DNA of 64,000 bases, from the NCBI GenBank assembly GCA_951406725.2, contig OX597817.1, positions 104,222,001 through 104,286,000 of the forward strand. The letters run 5' to 3'. Source of the stretch: Octopus vulgaris. Lineage: Eukaryota. Under the pieces are notes generated by a model, which was not told the DNA's origin, made no database searches, and was given only the letters and a program-made list of their open reading frames with translations. Of the stretch, positions 481-49,079 are shown piece after piece. The position numbers and the translations under genes are program-made. How positions within the stretch are numbered: the first letter of the stretch is position 1; every line of letters begins with the position of its first letter.

Positions 481-563
481 TGTTGTGGCGAGAGTCACGA
501 CACCACCTGCGAGAACAGACTGACTGAACGAGTATAAATAGTAGCGGTCTGAGTGAGATAGGA
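481..563 (+). mobile_element. Gypsy-type LTR, 5' portion (TG start, TATA-like box), interrupted by Tx1-like inserts
   Basis: Starts TGTTGTGGCGAGAGTCACGACACC after a (TA)n run, with TATAAATA at ~533. Aligns with the reverse complement of ~41930-41988 (GTTATGGCAAGAATCATGACACTCCCTGTGAGAATGAACTAACCGAACTCGTATAAGTAGC). Confidence 0.7.
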
Positions 564-599
564 CTGAGTTGGGGTTAGCTGCTGCGGAGATTGGGGACT

Positions 600-1094
600 A
601 TGGGGGTGGGAAGACCCGCGTGATCTGTGATACGGTAGAAGTGCGACGGCAGATGCAGATGATGTTACCATCATCGTGTCTGATGAAGGGCAGCTACCTC
701 GTGTAGAAGACGCCATCAAAGGATACGAAGCGGTAGCAGGGGAAAAAATTAACCAGGAGAAATCAGTTGGTTTGCAACTCGGCACCTGATATGGCAAGTC
801 AATGCCTCCCAATAGCCTCGTCGGACGATGGACAGAGAGCCCGATTAAATTGCTCGGAATCTGGTTTGGACCAGATCTTCAGGTGGAGGAAAACTGGAGC
901 GAGGTGACGAGTAAGGTGACGGCCATAACCCAGACCTAGTCTGGGAGGACGTTATCCTTGCTAGGAAGGGCCGCGGTTGTACAGGTGTTTATAGCACCTG
1001 ATTGTAACCCTATCCCCCTGTAAGACTGTCCCTGTTTCGTCCCCGCCCCTGTTCTGTACCTTGTATATATGCCGTTATAGGCGAATAAAGAAAT
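600..1094 (+). mobile_element. 5'-truncated L1/Tx1-like LINE fragment (RT C-terminal part plus 3' tail)
   Basis: Translates to ADDVTIIVSDEGQLPRVEDAIKGYEAVAGEKINQEKSVGLQLG*...IKLLGIWFG...RTLSLLGRAAVVQVFIAP, closely similar to the RT in ORF 46324..47253. Has in-frame stops and ends AATAAAGAAAT. Confidence 0.85.
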
Positions 1095-1095
1095 T

Positions 1096-2945
1096 CTGAG
1101 TAGGAGTTAATTCGTGCTGGCAGCACTTGTGTCATTTGTCACTTTTACATGTTTGATTTTTTGCTGGGAGTTTTCTCGCGCGAGACATTGTTGAAGTTTC
1201 TGTTGAAATTGTTGTAGCTTGTTTGCCAGTTTTGTTTTGTTGTTCGTTTCCCCCATTTTGGGGCGAAAATTGATTTTCATCCCAATATGGAGGTGGACTC
1301 CATACCAAGCTATGCGGCTGCCGCAGGAGCAGGAAAAAATGCTGTTGCCTTGCTGGAGGTGAAGAAGCTAGAAACTAGCCAAGAGATGTTGAATGAATGT
1401 GGAGAGTACATTCAAAAGAAGTGGACGGCTTTGAAGGTGGGCCCCTCCTAAGGAAAGTGTCGAAGAGAAGCAAAGAAGAACGTTGGTCTATCGTACACAA
1501 TCGGCTACATCACGGAAGATCGAAGTAGCGACGGAAAATGACATAGAGAGTTGCTTGCTATCAATAATGGAGGAAGCAACCTTCATTAATAGAGGAAGGA
1601 AGTTTGGCACGGTGGAGGTACGGTTTACCACCGAGGAGGAGGCAGTGAGGCGCTTGACGACAACGTTAAGGTCGGCAGGCTTGATACTTCTGCCGACCTG
1701 CATGGGAAGAAGAAATGTTAGAGTGCGGATTGGAAGGATCCTATCGGAAATAAAAGAAGTGTGGCCGGTGACAGGCATTATGGCTGCCACTCAGGAGGAC
1801 GCTAAATTGATGCGCGTCGGTAGAACGCAACAAGTGAATTGGTGGGGATATCACCTGGAAGTCTTGCTCCATGTCACCCACCATGACATCGAAGAATTAC
1901 CGTACGAAATTGTCATACCGGAGGAAAATGCGTTGAAGGTAGTTGTTGAGGGAAGACCCAACTGTTACCTATGTGGACGGAGAGGACACATAAAGGTCCA
2001 TTGCCCCGATTATAAGCCGCCCCAGACGGAGAAGACTACGGCGGAGCCCCACACTGAGAAGACAACGGCGGAGCCCCAGACCGAGAAGACTATGGCGGAG
2101 TCCCAGATCGAAAAGACTACGACGGTGCCCCAGAGCGTTGCTGAAGAAGCAACAGAGAAAAAGCAGAAACCAGTAGAGGGAAGTAGTGACGAGAGTGACT
2201 ACATTGTGAAGCACAAAAGAAGGAGGAGTGAGACGAAAGGATCCCCACCAAATGGTACAAACAAGGAGGACAAAACACCCACATATAAAAGACACGAAAA
2301 CCCATTTATGAACATCTCAACCCCATCCACACCACTGAAAAAAAAAAACATCGTAGACAATCCGGACAGGTATACAAAGACACATACACGCGCAGACATA
2401 CATAAGCAGGAAAACACACACGCAGCCAAACCATTCAGGTCCCCACAGAAAACCAAATACACCGCATACACAACAAAAGTGTGAATATACACAAAAGTGT
2501 GAATATAGAAAAGATGTTAACGAAATGGAAGAACATAACAAGAGTAAAACTGCCTGCAGGGGAGTTCCTCCCAATAAAAAGTGCGTCCTACTGGACCTGG
2601 AAAGAAATAAAAATTTTAAAAAGACTTTCGGGTCTGATGTAGACCCCATAGGGCCGGAAGTAGGGTTTGATACGCTGCCTCCTGTCATTGAATATAAGGA
2701 GGTGGAAAGCACTCAAAGCAAGTAAATGTAATTTTAAAACTAAATTGTTTACGATGAACTAGTAAGAAAAAACAATTGTATTAAATGTAACTACTCGAGT
2801 GCGGGGCTCGAGTAGCCATCGCACCCCCACATTCATATATCATCCTTTCATTAATTCATTCGTTTTACTTTTTCCCCGCTGCATGTTTTGTCTGTCCTTG
2901 CGTTGTCCCCTCTGTGTTGGGCCCTTGGTGGCCAAATAAAGAAAT
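1096..2945 (+). mobile_element. ORF1-only (HAL1-like) Tx1/L1-related non-autonomous element
   Basis: T-rich 5' UTR, ATG at 1287 (MEVDSIPSYAAAAG...), frameshifted ORF1 to ~2725, then ~220 bp 3' UTR ending TGTCC...CCCTCTGTG...AATAAAGAAAT. No ORF2 sequence seen. Confidence 0.65.
1287..2725 (+). pseudogene. Tx1/L1-like ORF1 (RRM-like region plus CCHC zinc knuckle), frameshifted
   Basis: ORF 1483..2484 contains GTVEVRFTTEEEA (RRM-like) and CYLCGRRGHIKVHC (CX2CX4HX4C), followed by ~27-bp tandem repeats (QTEKTTAEP) and a basic low-complexity tail. Confidence 0.75.
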
Positions 2946-3112
2946 GAGAGTAAAGGTTAATCGCAGGAAGTCGTAAGGTATCTATTTGGTAGTTTGTCGG
3001 AATATAGTTTGTTGGTTTGTGAAAAGTTGTTGTTACCCTGCTTCGTTATATATTTTATTGTTACTATGCGGTTATAGTGTACAAAAGTATCGTCATAATT
3101 GGCGAAATAACA
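2946..3112 (+). mobile_element. Gypsy-type LTR, 3' portion ending ...TAACA
   Basis: AATCGCAGGAAGTCGTAAGGT matches the sister LTR (reverse complement of ~41878-41898). Ends in CA four bases before a PBS. Confidence 0.7.
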
Positions 3113-3116
3113 ATAG

Positions 3117-3129
3117 TGGGGACGAGGAT
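3117..3129 (+). promoter_or_regulatory. Primer binding site (tRNA-Ser-like)
   Basis: TGGGGACGAGGAT is one mismatch from TGGCGACGAGGAT, the complement of a tRNA-Ser(GCU) 3' end, and lies between the LTR end and gag. Confidence 0.7.
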
Positions 3130-3173
3130 TCGAAATTCATGCAGGTCAGTTAACAAAATTTTGTGATATAAAG

Positions 3174-4570
3174 TTGCTAATTATGGCAGACCTATTAGCT
3201 TCCATAATACAGTTGAAAAAGCAACAGCAAGAACAGCAACAGGAGTTACAAAATCAACAACTACAGCCACAAGAAAAACAACAGTTAATGGAGCTATGTT
3301 TCAAGAAGTCCGGAAACACTATCAGTTCGTTTTCACCAGACGGTGTATCGAACTCTATAACAGAATTCAGTTGTTTGCAACGTACTTTAAAGGGTACGAA
3401 GAAATCTTCAGGGAAGATTGCAAGTCGTGGACAGATGAGGAAAAAGTAAGACTATTATTACGTAAATTAGCTCCGTCAGAACATGAAAAACGTTGTAATT
3501 TTATACTACCCCAAAAAAACTAGTGAAATTTGTTTTCAGGAAACAGTCGAATTACTTTCAAAAATGTTCAGATTACTATCAAAAATATTCAGTGATAAGA
3601 GTTCCTTATTTAGCACTCGATAAGAGTGTTGGAATCTAGTTAAAAAGAGGATGAAGACTTTATCACATATGCCGTGATCGTAAACAGAATGTGCGAAAGG
3701 TTTAAACTGAATGATCTAACTCCTGATATGTTTAAGTGCCTCATTTTTGTACAAGGTTTGACGCCAAACAAAGATGCGGAAATACGTGCAAGAATTCTCA
3801 CAAAACTTGAACAAGCGAACCAGAGTTTAATCCTGCAAACAATTGCAGAGGAATGTCAAAGAATGGTAAACTTGCGACAGAACGTAAAAAAAGTTGAAGG
3901 GAAGTGCAGGCATGTCGACCGGGAAGGAATAAACAAAAAAAAATTTTAGGACCAAACCCATGCCACAGATGTGGAGGCCTACATTTCAAGAAGGACTGTC
4001 CTTTCAAAATGCGGAAATGTTACAGTTGCCAAAAGGTAGGACACAAGAGCTCACATTGCAGAGCAAAGTTAGGAAGGTCGGAAAATAAAGTTTTCTCCAC
4101 ACGGAAAGTAGAAACGACACCAAGTTACGTGTTTTGGCTGACAATGGATCGGGACATTGAAAATTTGGTGAAATCATGTAGAGGTTGTGCACTAGCAGCC
4201 AAGGTACCACCGGTGTAATACCAAACGTGGTCTGAGACTGATGGCCCGTGGTCCAGGGTACGTATAGATTACGCTGGACAGGTGTACACGAATACTACTT
4301 GATCATTGTTGATAGTTTTACCAAATGTCCGGAAATATGTAGGTGCAGTCAACCAACGCTGAAGGCAACAATAAAGTTCCTGCACGAACCTTTTACTCGA
4401 TACGGTGTTCCGAACACCATAGTGTCGGACAATGGAACACAATTTACAGGATACGAGTTCAAAAATTTCTACAAAATGCATGCAATCAACTACATTTTAC
4501 TCCGCTCTACCACCCGAGATAAAATGGGCAAGCAGAACGATTGATTAGTAGACACTTTTAAGCGAGCCAT
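3174..4570 (+). mobile_element. Ty3/Gypsy (Mag-like) internal region: degenerate gag plus integrase, PR-RT-RNaseH deleted
   Basis: gag-like WTDEEKVRLLLRKL and two Zn knuckles CHRCGGLHFKKDCPFKMRKCYSCQKVGHKSSHC, followed directly by integrase SYVFWLTMDRDIENLVKSCRGC, YLIIVDSFTK and YGVPNTIVSDNGTQF. Several frameshifts. Confidence 0.9.
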
Positions 4571-11379: not shown

Positions 11380-12616
11380 TTGGTTTCAAATTTTGGTACA
11401 ATACCAATTATTTCAGGGGTTTGGGTAAGTCAATTACATTGACTCCGGTGTTCAGCTAATGCTTAATTTATCAACTCCGAAAGGATAAAAGGCAAAGTCG
11501 GTACCGGTGGAATTCGAACTTAGAACGTGAAGACGGACGAAATGCCTGACGTGCAAACTATACTGCCAGCTCACAGCCATATTTCAAGGAATGATATTGG
11601 TTTCAGATTTGGGCACAAGGCAAGCAATTTCAAAAAGGGGTTATGTCGATTACATCGACTCCAGTGCTCAACTGGTACTTATTTTATCGACCCAGAAATG
11701 ATGAGAAGCAAAGTCGATCCCAGTGACATTTAAACCCAGAACATAAAGATGGACGAAATATCACTTTTTGCCTGGCGTGCTAACGATTTTGCTAGCTCGC
11801 TGACTTTGTATGCATATCAATTAAGCATTGTTTATGATGAAATTATTTAATTTGTATTATACTGAAAACATGATCAATGCTTTTTGTTTTCATTATGTTT
11901 TTATCATTGTGTGAATTAAATTTGTTCTTGAAAATTAATGTTTTGAAATCGACATTTGGTGGGCCATATGTCGACTGTATTAAGTCAACATATGCTTGTC
12001 TATGGATGTTATATAAAGCTGTTGTAAGCCATGGCAGCAATAATCTTGATTTCAAATGTTGGCAAAAGGCCAGATTTTTCGGACCCCAGTGTTTAACTCG
12101 TTCTTACTTTATCGACTCCGAAAGTATGAAAAACAAAGTGAACCTCAGCAGAATTTGAATTCAGAATGTAAAGACAAACGAAATATGGCGAAGCATTTTT
12201 CCCGGCGTACTAACAATTATTTTCTTCTCTAGGCACAAGGCCCGAAATTTGGGGGGCAGGGGCCAGTCGATTAGATCGATCCCAGTACGCAACTGGTATT
12301 TAATTTATCGACACCGAAAGAATGAAAGGTAAAGTCGACCTCGGCGGAATTTGAACTCAGAACGTAAAGACATACGAAATACTTATTTCTTAACTACCCA
12401 CAAGGGGCTAAACACAGAGAGGACAAACAAGGACAGACAAACAGATTAAGTCGATTATATCGACCCAAGTGCGTAACTGGTACTTAATTTATCGACCCCG
12501 AAAGGATGAAAGGCAAAGTCGACCTCGGCAGAATTTTAACTCAGAACGTAAAGACAGACGAAATACTGCTAAGCGTTTCACCTGGCGTGCTAACGTTTCT
12601 GCCAGCTCGCCGCCTT
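11380..12616 (-). mobile_element. Cluster of SINE family A copies (three monomers plus one dimer), all minus strand
   Basis: Repeated reverse complement of GGCGGCGAGCTGGCAGAA...GAGTTCAAATTCCGCCGAGGTCGACTTTGCCTTTCATCCTTTCGGGGTCGATAAATTAAGTACCAGT. Dimer at ~12225-12616. Confidence 0.9.
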
Positions 12617-16367: not shown

Positions 16368-17000
16368 GTTATTATTATTATTATTATTATTATCATCATC
16401 ATTATCATTATTATTATTATTAAGGCGGCGAGCTTGCATAATCGTTAGCACGCCAGGTGAAATGCTTAGCAGTCTGCCGTTACGTTCTGAGTTCAAATTC
16501 CGCCGAGGTCGACTTTGCCTTTCATCCTTTCTAGGTCGATAAATTAAGTACCAGTTACCCACTGGGGTCGATATAATCGACTTAATCCGTTTGTCTGTCC
16601 TTGTTTGTCCTCTCTGTGTTTAGCCCCTAGTGGGTAGTAAAGAAATAGGTATTTCGTCTGCAGCTACGTTCTGAGTCAAATTCTGCCGAGGTCGACTTTA
16701 TCTTTCAACCTTTCGGAGTCGATAAATTAAGCACCAGTGAAGTATTAGGGTCGATGTGATCGACTTACCACCTCCCCACAAAAATTTCAGACCCTGTACC
16801 CATTGTAGAAAGGATTATTATTATTATTATTAGCACGCCGGGTAAAATGCTTAGCGATATTTCGCCCTCTTTACATTCTGAGTTCAAATTTTGCCGAGGT
16901 CGACTTTGCCTTTCAGGGTCGATAAATTAAGTACCAGTGAAACACTAGGGTCGATGTAATCGACTTGTCTCCTCCCCCAAAATTCCAGACCCTATGTCTA
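16140..17000 (+). mobile_element. SINE family A cluster including a dimer (16422-16815), interleaved with (CAT)n/(TAT)n
   Basis: Family A consensus motifs. The dimer has internal TTGTCTGTCCTTGTTTGTCCTCTCTGTGTTTAGCCCCTAGTGGGTAGTAAAGAAAT. Confidence 0.9.
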
Positions 17001-19944: not shown

Positions 19945-20370
19945 GTTAGTCTGTCCTTGTCTGTCCCCTCTGTGTTTAACCCCTTGTGGGTAGTAAAGAA
20001 ATAGGTATTTCGCCCGTCGCTACGTTCTGAGTTCAAATTCCGCCGAGGTCGAATTTGCCTTTCATCCTTTCGGGGTCGATAAATTAAGTACCAATGAAAC
20101 ACTGGAGTCGATATAATCGACTAGTCCCCGCTCCACAAATTTGAGGCCTTGTTCCTCCAGTAGAAAGGATTATTATTAGGCGATGAGCTGGCAGAATCGT
20201 TAACACGCCGGGCAAAACGCTTAGCAGTATTTCGCTCGTCGATACGTTCGGAGTTCAAATTCCGTCGAGGTCGACTTTGTCCTTCATTCTTTCGAAGTCG
20301 ATAAAATAGGTACCAGTCGATGTAATTGTCTAGTCCCCTCCCCCAAAATTTGGCAAAATTTGAAACCATT
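19945..20370 (+). mobile_element. SINE family A: truncated dimer plus monomer
   Basis: GTCTGTCCTTGTCTGTCCCCTCTGTG...GTAAAGAAATAGGTATTTCG followed by the family A body. Second copy starts at ~20178. Confidence 0.85.
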
Positions 20371-24582: not shown

Positions 24583-24804
24583 TCAATATAGGGTGGCAAA
24601 AAAATTTTTGTAGAATTCTTTTGCCACCAGCGGCCTAGTAGGAAAAAATTAAAATAGTCATAGACCATTTTTAAGTTCAACATCAACAATAAAGGAACGG
24701 CCATAATAGGCCATTCACCCACTAGAAATAACAGCCAAAGCTTCAACCGCAAATAAAAGTTAATTCAGTAAACCAGGAGAAAATTTAAAAACATTTACCC
24801 TGTA

Positions 24805-24911
24805 ATTTCTTATACGATATACCGTTTCATCTGCTGATTAATGGCAAACTAACCTGATTAAATTAAATCAAGCCAATCCTCCACAGGCCCTCAGATTCGT
24901 CAGTAAGAAAT
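24805..24911 (-). ncRNA. Type I hammerhead ribozyme motif (mirror copy)
   Basis: Reverse-complement copy of 24929-25035 in the left arm, with the core intact. Confidence 0.75.
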
Positions 24912-24928
24912 AGAAATAGCTATGGGCT

Positions 24929-25035
24929 ATTTCTTACTGACGAATCTGAGGGCCTGTGGAGGATTGGCTTGATTTAATTTAATCAAGTTAGTTTGCCATT
25001 AATCAGCAGATGAAACGGTATATCGTATAAGAAAT
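24929..25035 (+). ncRNA. Type I hammerhead ribozyme motif
   Basis: Stem I ATTTCTTA/TAAGAAAT; CTGACGA; stem II ATCTG/CAGAT with a ~58-nt insert; GAAAC-GGTATATC-GTA; predicted cleavage after 25027. Confidence 0.75.
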
Positions 25036-25123
25036 TACAGGGTAAATGTTTTTAAATTTTCTCCTGGTTTACTGAATTAACTTTATTTGCGGTTGAAGCT
25101 TTGGCTGTTATTTCTAGTGGGTG

Positions 25124-27754: not shown

Positions 27755-28860
27755 CTCGCCTTTCATTCTATCGGGATCGATAAAATAAGGAGCAGTTAAG
27801 CACTGAAGTTGATGTAATCGATTTACCCACCCGCCTCACACCTAAAATTGCTAACATTCTGTCAAGATTTAAAAGAATTACAAAAATCTTCAGAATCCTG
27901 ATATTCACACTACTTTGATTTTTCACAAAAATTTAGTTTTCCTTGACTTTATCTCCTGCTCCGACTTTGGAGCAGTCATCCCGAGTGCTTCATTATCAAC
28001 CTTTCTTTGCATAAAGTATAAATTATGAATATAGCTGATTTTGTGCTTAGATTAATTATTATTTCTGAGTTCAAATTCTGCGGAAGACGATTTTGCCTGT
28101 TATCCATTCGGGATCCAGTTGACTTAACCACTCCTCTTAAAATGGCTGGCCTTGTACCAAATTAGAAAAAAATATTATTACTAGTATCATTAAGTCTTAA
28201 CCAGGTAGCGAGCCGGCAGAATCGTTAGCACGCCGGGCAAAATGCTTCGAGGCATTTCGTTTGAGTTAAAATTCCGCCGAGGTCGACTTTGCCTTTCATC
28301 TTATACGGATCGATAAAATAAGTACTAGCTGAGCACTGGGGTCGACTTAACTCTTCCCCCAAAATTGCCAGCCTTGTACCAAAATGTAAAACCAATATTA
28401 AACCTTAACAAGGGTCTAGAGAATTTGTTCAATTTCAGTATAAGTATTTATTTTATTGATCTCAGTTAAATTTGGGACTAGAAATATTCTTTTCTACTCT
28501 AGGCACAGGGCCTGAAATTTTTTTTTTTTTTTTTTTTTGGTACACAATTTATAGACCACCCCAAAAGGATGAAAGGCATATCGACCTCGGCAAAATTTGA
28601 ACTCAGAATGTAAAGACAGACGAAATACCTAATTTTTTACTACCCACAAGAGGCTAAACACGAAGAGGACAAACAAGGACAGACAAACAGATTAAGTCGA
28701 TTATATCGACCCAAATGCGTAACTGGTACTTAATTTATCGACCCCGAAAGGATGAAAGGCAAAGTCGACATCGGCGGAATTTGAACTCAGAACGTAACGG
28801 CAGACGAAATACGGCTACGCATTTCGCCCGGCATGCTAACGTTTCTGCCAGCTCGCCGCT
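27755..28860. mobile_element. SINE family A cluster: three plus-strand copies and one minus-strand dimer (28490-28860)
   Basis: Family A motifs. Dimer linker at ~28631-28687. Confidence 0.85.
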
Positions 28861-40429: not shown

Positions 40430-42570
40430 TGTAATATGTATGTGCTTTTGTTTTTCGTTTGAGGAGTGTGAATATAAAATTCAAGTTTGTGAGCGAAAAA
40501 TGCTTAAAGAAAAATGATTAAAGAATAAAAAAGAATTAAAAAGAATCCTTTTAAAGAATTGGAATCATTGACAGAGAGCATCAAGCTCCAATTGCATTAA
40601 AAAAATACTGAGATGTTTCGCACAAATTTTTCTCAATTGCATAAAAGTTTTAAGAGTCGTTAACCACTTAGTCACGAGGAACTCATACCTAGGAAGATAA
40701 AAAATAGTTTTGAAACCTCTTTGTTTGGGTTGGATATTAAAATTGTAGGCGAACTTTTGAATTTGTTATTAAAGAACATGTCATTAATATAGAAAAGAAC
40801 CTGTAATAATATTTGAATATCAACGCAGAATAAACGCATTCAGCTAATGGTGTGTATTGCTTGCCAGATATTGCAGTGTAGCATTTATAATGCCTAATAT
40901 TCTGGACCCATTTTCAGTTTGGTCACAGATCAAGTGCACTGAGAGCAATTGACCGAAATAGTTCGATATGTTAATATTGATTTTAAGAAGAAAACAGCTT
41001 TCATATAATAGTTTCTTCTTTGATTTATTCAGTTACAACGATGGATACTGAGAATGGTCTATGTAGTTTTTAGAACAATTTGTAGAAGACGAAATACGTT
41101 AGAAGACTGTCGGTTTCATTGCTATGGCAATACTGCAGTTATGGCTGTTTATATAAGTAATGTTAAACAGGATTAATGAAAACATTGCGAAGCTATTTTT
41201 GTAAGCTGCAATAATCATTGTGACAGTTTAGCCGGACTTCGTGTTGCTAAACATGATGCATTCTTTTTTCACTGCAATTCAGACGCTTTATTCGTTCTTG
41301 CCCTGTTCAACACCGCGTTGGTAAAAGCTGAAAGATGCTTCATCAATAGATGTCACCTCGATTTAAAACGTGATGAAATGTTAAAACAGAGACTGCAGTC
41401 AATTCATGAATTGTCTGGTATCATATTGGATTTTTTGTAGTTGATAATCGAAATCAAACTTTTTATTTCTTGGCCTTTCTTGGATTTTAGATGAAAATCT
41501 TTATTCGAATTGACTGTGTTCAAAAATACTTCCGAGATCATACTATTAGTTTTCACGATGATGCTTGCAATTTTAAGACTCGTCGAAGTTATTTTTGAAG
41601 TAGTCGAGAATAATTGACCAGTGAATCATTTGAAGCTGGCGTGAAGCTTTTATAACGCAGATATCCTTGTCTCCAACGTGGCGCTGTATGCCACTTTTAT
41701 AATGCGGACTTATACCAGGGTTATATACATATCCACATAACGGAGTAGACATCAACCGTCTCCACTTGATGCATTCCCAGATACTCTGCCAACAACTGTA
41801 ACCAATCCCAAACAACTCTCAACGAACTATAACGACTTCTCAAAAATGTCCTGTTACTCCACGAACTCAGGAACGACACCTTTCGACTTCCTGCGATTTC
41901 TCATCTCTCGCTGCTACTTATACGCTGCTACTTATACGAGTTCGGTTAGTTCATTCTCACAGGGAGTGTCATGATTCTTGCCATAACTGAAACTATGTGA
42001 AGAATGTAATATTGAAGGAGAAAGACACTCCAGAAGAAAGAAACAAACATCTGGGGAAAAGGTCAAGGATTAGCCGTTAAAGAAGAAATGATGAGAATAA
42101 CGAATCCATAATGAAATGAAAGAAAGATTTATCAGTCTTCATGTTTTGGATTCTGAATTTGGATTTCTTTTAGAAGCTAGAGTATTCCTGTTTTACTCAA
42201 ATGCAACAGCATTCATAATGTAAAAATCATAAAGGGAAATAGTCTCAACCTTGAACAGTTTTATAGTACAAATATAGACGGATTTGAGTTTTACAAATAA
42301 AAAAGAAAAAGGAAAAGGCTTGGATGGCATTCTCAGATGTTTCTGAAAAGTCATCAAAACATTTTCATGTCCAGCTGTTTCAAGTTAGTTAAAGAATTTG
42401 GTGCAGAATATGGAGCACACTTCATTAGTACCAATTTTCTAAGGAAGAAAAATTTTATTTTGCAAGGAATATAAACTTCAGAGTAACTTACTATTGCAAT
42501 TTTAATCACCAGCTGAGCACCAATTTTTCAGCAAAGTGAAACATGAAAGCTTTATTAAAAATAACCAAAA
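40430..42570 (+). mobile_element. Degenerate hAT transposase remnant, interrupted by an LTR
   Basis: EQLTEIVRYV (cf. EQLS..RYV), CRFHCYGNTAVMA (cf. CRGQ.YDNAA.M), AIFVSCNNH (cf. C..H), STPRW and a C-terminal FSKVK (hAT dimerisation-like). Confidence 0.65.
41663..41988 (-). mobile_element. Uninterrupted Gypsy-type LTR plus PBS-like site, related to the split LTR at 481-3112
   Basis: Homologous to both 481-545 and 2959-2985. Ends ...GCCACG followed by TGGAGACAAGGAT (PBS-like, 41663-41675). Confidence 0.65.
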
Positions 42571-45751: not shown

Positions 45752-48700
45752 ATTCTTTATTACGATAAAAAAAAATATCATACATAGAGGGGAGATCACA
45801 GGACATTACAAACAAATAGTACGTTTATGAGTTCATTTTAGAAGTGTGTTTTTTTAAATATGATGATTATTAACTTCAAAATTTAACACATTTTACAAAT
45901 TTACACTTATATTTTAAGAAATTTTCAGTTTTACAACTTTTACCCTTGGTCATGGAGCCCAACGACTACAACATGCTTTTTACTAAGAATGAGATTAAGT
46001 AGGGTCATTCACATCCAACTTCCTTGCTACATCCTTCCATCTTTTCTCGAATATACTTCGCGACAGGTGTCTCCTCTCCAGCCCTATCTTGCTCTTCAGA
46101 TAATATCTGAAGTAATATAGCAACCCAAGGACAGAGATAAAAGTTTCCGTCGCAACACCTTTCATTCTAGTTCTCCATAAACACTCTTTCAACACTGCGA
46201 CTGTATATAAAAAACATACCTCACCTTCCTTTGATAGTCCGGGTGGCGGTACAATATTGATCATGGACTCAGCGGATAGCTGTACTCTTCCTTGGTGCGA
46301 CAACACGTGTTCTACGTAAATTATCAAGGCAGAAAGCTCCGGGCACTGTACAAGAGCGTGCAGAACGGCTTCATCGTCGTGTCCGCACCTTGGGCATGTC
46401 GGTAGCACAGACATTCCATTATCGTCTTGCCGCTCCAGCTGCCGAGCCCCAAGCCGATGGACTTGTCCTTGTTAATTTTTGCCCCTTCCACCACCTCGTA
46501 TCCTTTGATTGCATCCTCTACACAAGGTAGCTGATCTTCATCGGGCAGGGTGATGGTGACGTCATCCGCATATGCAGAAACAGACTTACCACTCTCCAAC
46601 CTCCGCAGCAATGGCTCATGAGCCAGTACATATAGAAGCGGAGACAGGGGACACGCTTGACGAACTGAGCGCTTGATCCCAAGTGGCACCGACAGGTAAC
46701 CGTTTATCTGGACTGCGGGTTTGATGCCGCCATAAATGGCAGTGATCCAACCACGGAAGTCTGGGCCTAGCCCAGCCGCCTCGAAGACCGCCGCCAGGTA
46801 CTGGTGGTCTACCCTATCAAAAGTTTTACTTTGGTCTAAATGGACCAGTGCCCCACCTTTACCAGATAATTTACCAACCCTGTCTAGGGTGTAGTGCAAG
46901 AGATGGAGATTGTCCTGGATTGACCTGCCTGGGATGGCGCATGTCTGCGCTCTCCCAACAAGTTTCTCCGCGACACCCGCCAGCCTTTTCGCTAGCACCT
47001 TCGCCAAACTCTTTAACTCTACATTAAGTAGACTTATGGGCCTAAAATTACTAATATGGTCTCCCTTGCTCATGTCTTTTCTGGTCAACGTCATCACTCC
47101 CCGACTCACAGAGCTGGGAATCCTCCCATTCTGCTGCCAGTTTGTGTAGACGCAGGCCAACAAGTGTCCGACCAAGTTTGGTATACTACGATAAAATTCA
47201 TAGGGCAGACTATCCAGCCCCGGCGACATGTCCCTGGAGCACTCAGCCAGCACCTCTTCAACCTCCGTAGCTGTTATAAGCCCTTCAGAACATTCCGCCT
47301 CCGTGCGAAGAGTCGCGGCCCACCGGCGAGGAAGTCCTTTAGGGACTCCCCACGGTCCATCCCGCCGCTCTCCCCGAACAACCGGGCGAAATGCTGGTGA
47401 AAAGCCTTCTGCATCTCCTCCTATACTTCAATCGTACGCCCATGTTCGTCGTTAAAGACTTGGTAGAAGCACGTCTGCCTCTCCGACTCTCCACACGACG
47501 TGCCGATCCGGCAACGTTAATACTCTCTCTCTCTCCTCACCGCACGAAACTTAGCTCTGACTCTAAACCCTTCCTCTTCGGCTTTGAGATGACGGAAAAA
47601 AACCACTTTCGTTGCCATCAATCTCGATGCAGAGCAAGATTCTATGGCCTCATTTAATTCCTTAATTAGGCTCCCTTCTATTCTAGTCTTCTCTAGACTG
47701 AGCTGTTAACTAAATCTAACAGACTCAGAACGAATGGCTCGCTTGAGGGCATGCCAACACCTATTATTAATGATGGCGCCGGTTAATACACTCAGCAATA
47801 ACTCCTTAACTCGGGCACGGACGGTTTTAGAAGTCAAAATAATAGACTTGTTCATCTTCCAGTACTCTGATCTATGCCTATGACACTTATCTAGGGTACA
47901 CCTCACGCGTCACAAACTTGTGATCCGTATAAGGGATATAACAAAAGCGTGGACAATTAACGTCTTCCTAACTCTATCCCTAACGAATATCGTATCTAAA
48001 TAAGATCTGAGTGAACCGTCGTTATTAGGCCACATCCACTGTGGAACCAGCGATTCATCCAGCCTGTATTTGTCCACTAGATTATAGCTTCCTAGGGTTT
48101 CCTCTTCTATCAGTCGAGCCAACACTATTCACCCGTGCGTCGAGAATAATGTTAAAGTCTCCTAGTACAACTAGAGATTTTGACGTCACTAAGAAGTTCT
48201 CCAGGTCCCAGAAAAAAACAGCTTGTCTACACTCCTTGGGAGCGTAGACAGCCACCAACTTGAAGGACGACTGTTTACTTACGTGTGTCACACCCAAGAC
48301 GACCAGCCTACCTTCTGGGTCCAGAAAGACTGTACTTACCTGTACGTCCAAGTTTTTCCTGAATAAGACCACTACGCCCCGCCTCCCCGTCTCCCCACCG
48401 ACTATCATCAGAGCTCACTTCAAAGCTCGAGTGTACAAAGCAACAAAAGACATTCCACCTTTGTACACTCGAGCTTTGAAGTGAACTGATGATTATTGAT
48501 AACACATCATTTCTTTCATTGAAAGATATAATTTTTTCTTGCGTCTTGGAGTGGGGTTTGGTGAAGGATTTTAACAAGGGGGTGGTGTGGTGTGTTTTTC
48601 GTATGTGTCTGTAGTATGCTTGCTTGTTTTCTTTGTATGGGGAGGAGCGTCCGTGGCTTGGGCCTTTTTTCTCTTGTGTGATGTAACCATGGTAAAATCC

Positions 48701-48790
48701 ATTTCTTCTTCTGTTACAGGAGTTGTGTCTTCTATTTTTTGTGTCTTTCCTTGTGTTTTTCTTTTGTTATTACCGTAAGGTGGGCTGCGA
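45752..48790 (-). mobile_element. L1/Tx1-like LINE, degenerate (ORF1 tail, APE endonuclease, RT, Zn finger, 3' UTR)
   Basis: APE: GRLVVL, LVAVYAP, VVLGDFN, SYLDTIFV. RT: SPGLDSLP, NFRPISLLN, LDQSKTFDRVDH, QACPLSPLLY, YADD. Zn finger CPRCGHDDEAVLHALVQC. Internal deletion between RT and Zn finger. 3' end ...CCCCTCTATG...AATAAAGAAT. Confidence 0.92.
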
Positions 48791-49079
48791 TTGGTCGAGA
48801 AAAGTCACGCGGTGTCGTGGTTTGATGTTGGTATATGGGTATCAGTTAGCTGGAAAATACCGCATGGTAAACAGGAAATTGACCACATGGAGGACAGGAA
48901 ATAGACCACGTGGCGATTAGGAAATCGGTCAGTTTATTGGGGACGAAGTAGGCATTGGGGCAAAGGCAGAGCTGGCAGTTCCAGGTGAAAATAGTGGCGC
49001 CCTGTCGACAATAGTCCACTTGATGCTGGGTATTTCATCTTAGAGAGAAGGAAGTAGAGTTCTCTTTGTCCCTGAATCT

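Follow-up and report, generated by a model that had tools for sequence, protein, structure and literature searches.

The choice of target by APE-type LINEs is usually credited to an endonuclease that reads DNA sequence. Within the Tx1 clade, the crocodilian families Tx1-8_Crp and Tx1-4_AMi prefer LTR elements, and tandem insertions around one duplicated site have been described, for which flank-driven transcription was considered possible (Kojima, 2015; PMC4494074). The available portion of that text gives neither a position within the LTR nor a link to a TATA box or start site for Tx1 families (PMC4494074). A survey of octopus repeats lists 13 recently active L1-Tx1 families, and the part accessible to us leaves their targets unmentioned (PMC13282606). 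Tx1 families that prefer LTR elements are thus known; TATA-anchored targeting across unrelated promoters was not found in print, and in the literature covered, mostly open-access papers, no LINE is reported to target the start sites of Pol II.

The stretch of DNA analysed here (the window, 64 kb) has near its beginning a Gypsy element with a 5' LTR into which two LINE insertions have brought 2.4 kb (Table 1). Our main reading, to which we assign a probability of about two in three, is that an L1/Tx1-type LINE lineage inserts in sense orientation some 30 nt past the TATA box of unrelated repeats, likely by homing to Pol II start sites, and that this LTR was hit twice. The lineage so defined comprises autonomous elements and derivatives that have ORF1 only, to which a SINE is added that shares their tail.

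Table 1. Features of the split Gypsy LTR and of related or neighboring sequences in the window.
Feature	Position	Strand	Basis or remarks
LTR upstream (U3-like) part, Gypsy	481-563	+	TATA box 533-540; aligns with empty copies
Target-site copy 1	564-578	+	Begins 31 nt past first T of TATA TATAAATA
Element 1 (ORF2-type LINE copy, 5'-truncated, internally deleted)	579-1095	+	RT C-terminal part to ~998, then 3' tail; AATAAA at 1084
Target-site copy 2	1096-1110	+	12/15 to copy 1; 10/15 to copy 3
Element 2 (ORF1-only LINE derivative, full 5' end)	1111-2945	+	3'UTR end is AATAAAGAAAT
Target-site copy 3	2946-2960	+	Alignment to empty LTR copies
LTR downstream (R/U5-like) part, Gypsy	2961-3098	+	Alignment to empty LTR copies
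PBS-like motifs past the LTR (presumed PBS role)	3100-3127	+	Sequence
Broken Gypsy internal part	3182-4570	+	gag, jump to integrase near 4123; DUF7083, zf-CCHC, Integrase_H2C2, rve
Abundant SINE	12355-12610	-	
Abundant SINE	16430-16760	+	
Abundant SINE	19945-20166		
Abundant SINE	28601-28860	-	
Near-perfect 158-nt inverted repeat	24756-25084		Spacer 13 nt
Diverged related LTR subfamily without insertion	41663-41988	-	Alignment; 14-nt duplicated TATA stretch
Second broken LINE of the same group	~45760-48800	-	ORF1 remnant, endonuclease, RT 79% like element 1, zf-RVT, AATAAAGAAT end

An earlier note on this DNA had placed the motifs TATAAATAGTAGC and AATCGCAGGAAGTCG at 533 and 2959 and had stated that both inserts end in AATAAAGAAAT; these positions are correct, and 1084 and 2935 are the only two occurrences of AATAAAGAAAT in the window. 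The same note took the outer segments for the halves of one LTR. When the 2.8-Gb genome was searched, the right half as query returned 29 other loci, and in 25 of these the counterparts of 481 to ~563 and 2946 to ~3098 are adjacent, which confirms this view; both halves also align to a single natural empty copy (L206). The three junctions that had been described as similar are indeed alike, with pairwise matches of 12, 9 and 10 of 15 positions between the 15-mers at 564, 1096 and 2946, values equaled in 3 of 200,000 random triples from 481-3130. Judged by alignment, these 15-mers are degenerate copies of native LTR sequence, that is, target duplications. The description of the sister LTR at 41663-41988 holds in that its second TATAAGTAGC ends 14-15 nt ahead of the shared motif, but this LTR belongs to a diverged subfamily and is not the closest relative of the split copy. 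Contigs of two other public runs span the junctions at 1096 (X5, X6) and 2946 (X5) with ~99% identity; the inner junctions are therefore bridged, and the split LTR is no assembly artefact. A gap in contig cover over element 2 in run X4 proves nothing. The host element displays Ty3/Gypsy features, namely an LTR, PBS-like motifs, gag and integrase, while neither a second LTR (by self-BLAST) nor its RT was found in the 64-kb window.

From their coding content, the two inserts paired in the earlier note are different in kind, one being an RT fragment and the other ORF1-only. Element 1 matches the intact L332 ORF2 at 65% over residues 671-797 of the latter, has DNA relatives at 80-90%, and lacks ~1.1 kb in comparison with L263. 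In element 2 the 5'UTR extends to 1286 and is followed by an ATG at 1287, a frame-shifted ORF1 and an open frame at 1435-2481 with a CCHC knuckle; the element is colinear along its whole length with L032/L083, and no ORF2 similarity was found inside it. Its zf-CCHC match (E 0.015-0.031) is below the cut-off, and the ORF1 of L330 gives a zf-CCHC match at E 7.5e-5. The relative L332 carries an intact ORF2 of 1132 aa with Exo_endo_phos, RVT_1 and zf-RVT domains and no RNase H match, and the best solved-structure match of this protein is human L1 ORF2p (E 6e-65). On the evidence of these relatives, with element 1 keeping only part of the RT, the lineage has the ORF1/ORF2 make-up of the L1/Tx1 group. 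It also shows the Tx1-type trait of target preference with 13-18 nt duplications in most copies that have both junctions. The Tx1 label is a putative one, based on domain order and target specificity; no named Tx1 protein was among the protein search matches. The organization of an ORF1-only family, 5'UTR, ORF1 and 3'UTR without ORF2, is seen in intact 1.78-kb array units on many contigs. Comparison of ORF1 with the fish ZCCHC3-type ORF1 gave no similarity outside the knuckle. A 'split' system with ORF1 and ORF2 on separate elements was dropped as an interpretation because the autonomous copies have both ORFs.

Element 2 probably arrived at the locus first and element 1 second, an order suggested by one shared base and by the 12/15 versus 10/15 matches among the target copies. 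The promoter-proximal element 1 is 5'-truncated and carries its own terminal AATAAA, so that no coding product would be driven at the locus now.

We refer to the LTR family of the window as family A. The proposal that a Tx1 lineage targets this family stands with regard to the LINE site ~30 nt past the TATA box, the tandem stacking, and the recurrence within the family, but family A is only a minor target. Its site is filled in the window and in L067, L068 and L157, and a copy of the sister subfamily (L283) has a tail at the matching place; by comparison, 0/11 exact-motif copies and 1/32 other LTR rows are filled. L157 mirrors the plan of the window, with a left half and three target copies, one of its inserts being a SINE with the same tail. 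The tails of the four A sites fall at four separate places in a 72-row tree of 3'UTRs, and the inserts differ in content; the separate places indicate that the A-site insertions are independent, with at least four hits.

The 60-nt tail of the SINE that is abundant in the window is ~80% like the end of element 2 and close to that of the young family. This likeness, together with the L157 copy that lies between duplications at an LTR target site, makes it likely that the SINE is mobilized by the LINE lineage. Within the window, the SINE tails run into SINE-internal sequence, as if SINEs had inserted into SINEs at one spot.

To see beyond family A, we used a flank-free tail search, which returned 29 other loci; six partial-query matches were set aside, leaving 23. 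Seventeen of the 23 tails are followed by the downstream part of an LTR, the mariner site, or a target copy and a further element, while 6/23 are without an assigned target. A second search, with a tail query that contained ~11 nt of family B flank, gave 28/30 tails with an assigned target and 2/30 without, as judged by eye; a TATA box was traced for only a minority of its ORF2-type tails. A joint tail-plus-target pattern produced two matches only, one of them an empty LTR.

Outside family A, the lineage has hit five or more LTR families, as well as a Helitron-like repeat and the promoter of a mariner. In the mariner the insertion lies 18 nt ahead of the transposase ATG (HTH_48, E 2e-16); another target is a repeat that ends with a hairpin and CTAG, which we take to be Helitron-like; and in L348 the target is a CCAAT+TATA promoter, where the duplication of 17 nt is perfect and lies at TATA+30. 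Occupancy among exact-motif copies is 11/27 for family B, 6/12 for D (three of the six filled copies being one duplicated locus), 1/7 for G and 3/3 for C, in scans that ignore the upstream side but whose motifs were taken from filled copies. Occupancy varies widely, between 0 and 50%, among families whose TATA boxes are alike. No antisense insert at the site was seen in the tail-search and exact-motif sets.

Several further loci were recorded alongside these targets. The CCAAT+TATA promoters ahead of the inserts of L348 and L343 are possibly those of host genes, and L343 has stacked 5' tags, one of which resembles a Helitron-variant target. L307 and L349 display a further recurrent TATA-bearing target with tandem inserts. 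ORF2-type copies end at two more recurrent flanks (L134, L140 and L143; L144 and L159); one of these flanks starts like an Initiator, and the other matches the target of L348. In L207 the start of a family G LTR recurs in inverted form behind that LTR, as a fold-back. The H target is the mariner; the Tc1 piece that follows L248 was dropped for this role, as it is not shared. A U2/Keno-type target is unsupported at 12 target loci, in which Rfam found nothing.

The position of the insertions relative to the TATA box was read in the 22 copies that have both junctions. With TATA boxes and duplication starts chosen by eye, the distance between them is 29-34 nt in 15 copies, 35-39 nt in five, and 18 and 23 nt in the remaining two. 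Automatic duplication finding was misled by short matches in 6/16 cases, the window included, after which the junctions were assessed by eye. Of the 11 filled B copies, automatic filled/empty calling missed four in one run and one in another. In family B, 14/16 empty copies have a TATA-like box 33 nt ahead of the anchor A, and the tails end 2-3 nt before the anchor. Most empty copies of B, D and G have a TATA-like box 32-34 nt ahead of the anchor base, with tails that stop 2-4 nt short. In core promoters the distance from the TATA box to +1 is ~30-31 nt. The spacing is variable, the young family being at 35-39 nt, and the site tracks the local sequence where the spacer is 3 nt shorter; both points, like the wide range of occupancy, speak against our main reading. 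A short (G/C)AG(T/C) start is common to five LTR targets, which implies that sequence matters too.

The 3'UTR tree shows how readily targets are exchanged. A seven-row tail group (support 85/97) spans targets A, B, C and G, and element 2 groups with a family C copy (99/86). The target labels change 35 times on the 72-row tree versus 44.3 times when shuffled (0/200), which indicates partial clustering of labels, chiefly B, and preferences among subfamilies. We do not see one conserved target sequence per family, as sister tails lie in A, B, C and G and the junctions drift.

A sequence-specific endonuclease, by which subfamilies would read short motifs at Initiator-like positions with no promoter protein involved, is the accepted rule for Tx1 in the available text of PMC4494074. 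It would account for the (G/C)AG(T/C) start of the LTR targets, for a site that follows local sequence, and for the partly clustered labels. We nevertheless think it unlikely as the explanation of the whole pattern: the mariner, Helitron-like and CCAAT+TATA targets have no motif in common with the LTR sites; near-identical tails occupy A, B, C and G; drifting junctions are still hit, in the upstream copy only; and L300 and L306 are hit at the same place, where they share the upstream repeat and their downstream sequence is unlike.

Young copies give further insight into how the insertions accumulate. An ORF1 protein search gave 12,666 first-look candidates, a figure that is no copy number (150 were scored), and many of the open frames are spaced 1.78 kb apart. 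Among the head-to-tail ORF1-only arrays at C7:100.087-100.128 Mb, C22:41.947-41.961 Mb, C9:94.208-94.214 Mb and elsewhere (L317-L336), that on C7 has ~20 intact 1.78-kb units. The young arrays lie in the Helitron-like repeat, the 3' part of which resembles by eye an old ORF1 remnant (no match by tblastn). Four RT fragments 8-15 kb apart at C25:34.69-34.74 Mb (L149-L154) have the look of a segment duplicated in tandem and not of an array built by insertions.

Ten young arrays were sampled at their two ends. An autonomous element with ORF1 and ORF2 is the 3'-most member in 6/10, and one of these members has the intact ORF2 of 1132 aa. The 5'-most units of the young family are 0.85% apart and the 3'-most units 3.5%; the 3'-most units of three arrays are mutual nearest relatives, ~3% from the 5' units of their own arrays, and the nearest relatives of array units are often in other arrays. 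Judged from these distances, the arrays grow through fresh insertions on the promoter side. Such growth means that the upstream context counts, without showing which part of it.

These relationships bear on the idea that each LTR family received a single old insertion, which was then amplified along with the LTR element or by duplication, and that unequal crossing-over enlarged the arrays. Duplicate copies do exist (L223-225, L192/193, L278/279), and the distance within arrays is slightly lower than between them (median 0.8% vs 1.2%). The mutual nearness of 3'-most units from three arrays runs counter to this idea, as do the differing content and tree positions of the four A-site inserts and the eight changes for the eight rows of family D. 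As a general account it is already contradicted by these comparisons, and we consider it highly improbable.

The earlier note had suggested a search for target-site duplications in young copies. Over the 13-nt junction, 3' flanks are target-like in 9/11 cases but 5' junctions in just 3/11. Variants of the 5' junction are kept from unit to unit of an array, and three arrays share a variant that has three changes, a pattern that fits a leader carried on the RNA. Among older copies, two elements at G sites begin, behind G-type duplications, with the family A 17-mer (16/17 and 15/17; 0/20,000 shuffles); a third candidate tag (L231) fails without gaps at 8/18 and, with a gap, is matched in 11/20,000 shuffles. 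The 5' tags that some copies have from an earlier target point to transcription from a captured promoter. A contig of a putative RNA run crosses the 5' junction of a young array by ~36 nt at a graph branch and is uninformative.

The choice of target might instead be guided by the RNA itself. Transcripts would end within the downstream target copy, 10-30 nt past the AATAAA, and would pair with a copy of this repeat that has been nicked; lineages sited at starts would then be selected through promoter capture. In favor of such a scheme, the AATAAA lies just 5-6 nt from the element end, and the R2 5' junction uses co-transcribed flanking target sequence, according to the part of PMC3774820 available. 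However, donors with an A tag have entered G sites, one with a B tag has entered family E, and the 3' flanks remain native while the 5' junctions vary. We rate RNA guidance as still less probable than recognition by an endonuclease.

Taken together, the copies of the lineage share their position past the TATA box, their sense orientation and duplications of 13-18 nt; they occur in unlike targets, switch between these, stack on the promoter side and carry tags. We regard this pattern as real and well supported, and from the spacing and the 5' tags we infer the start site and the gain of a promoter. Under our main reading, homing to Pol II start sites, a particle of ORF1p and ORF2p would be drawn to the pre-initiation complex or to the opened DNA at the start. 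The template strand would be cut close to +1, and the complementary strand ~15 nt beyond that point. Once the captured promoter drives a full-length copy, the resulting RNA would start with the first bases of the target, and these bases would anneal at the next 5' junction or remain as a tag. Each newcomer would land in front and take the promoter, and the AATAAA that it brings would deprive the older copies, as well as the host element, of transcription.

We tentatively extend this to a more far-reaching proposal, for which we claim less confidence than for the main reading. A still-active LINE lineage may read the Pol II core promoter, not DNA sequence, and insert at +1 of active TATA promoters; it would have no promoter of its own, its 5' tags would be those of former hosts, and ORF1-only copies would stack before autonomous ones and take their promoter. 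By placing a poly(A) signal at the transcript start of Gypsy, mariner and Helitron elements it would act as a promoter predator of transposons. Silencing of other transposons may follow, as 40-50% of sampled copies are filled in two LTR families. If true, promoter homing explains the ready target switching of Tx1 families, and the lineage would label those core promoters that are active in this large, cephalopod-like genome. Intact young copies with ORF1 and ORF2 exist, so that the lineage is directly testable.

A lineage that keeps one TATA distance in unrelated promoters would, if true, be for Pol II what Ty3 and TRE5-A, both placed by Pol III factors, are for Pol III. Ty3 of S. cerevisiae integrates a few bases from the transcription start via TBP and Brf1; it is an LTR retrotransposon with an integrase that acts at Pol III genes, whereas here a TPRT element occupies TATA-type Pol II promoters (PMC5911963). 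TRE5-A of Dictyostelium is an L1-clade LINE with APE, RT and zinc finger that is placed by position and whose ORF1p binds TFIIIB subunits; in contrast to the octopus lineage it inserts 44-54 bp upstream of tRNA genes, in opposite orientation and, in the available account, without promoter capture (PMC5911963). R2 is co-transcribed with its target, as we propose for the present lineage, and upstream target sequence on the RNA shapes its 5' junction, but it uses a single rDNA site and a restriction-like endonuclease, and its 5' end is made by a ribozyme (PMC3774820). HeT-A, HAL1 and Ag-Sponge are, like element 2, ORF1-only non-autonomous LINEs, and HeT-A also forms head-to-tail arrays and uses upstream promoter sequence; these elements belong to the Jockey, L1 and CR1 clades, not to Tx1, and the HeT-A promoter is its own 3'UTR at telomeres (PMC5786205, PMC5537684). 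In target type the lineage resembles Tx1-8_Crp/Tx1-4_AMi, Tx1-Mar, and Tx1L in Tx1D, APE-type LINEs that prefer transposons including LTR elements and mariner (PMC4494074). By eye, the Mariner-N4 duplication of that paper agrees with the mariner site here at 11/16 positions, a lead only, as the insertions there run in the opposite direction (PMC4494074). Each of those Tx1 families, as far as the accessible text describes them, has one target family, while the octopus lineage is found in many unlike targets at one TATA distance (PMC4494074).
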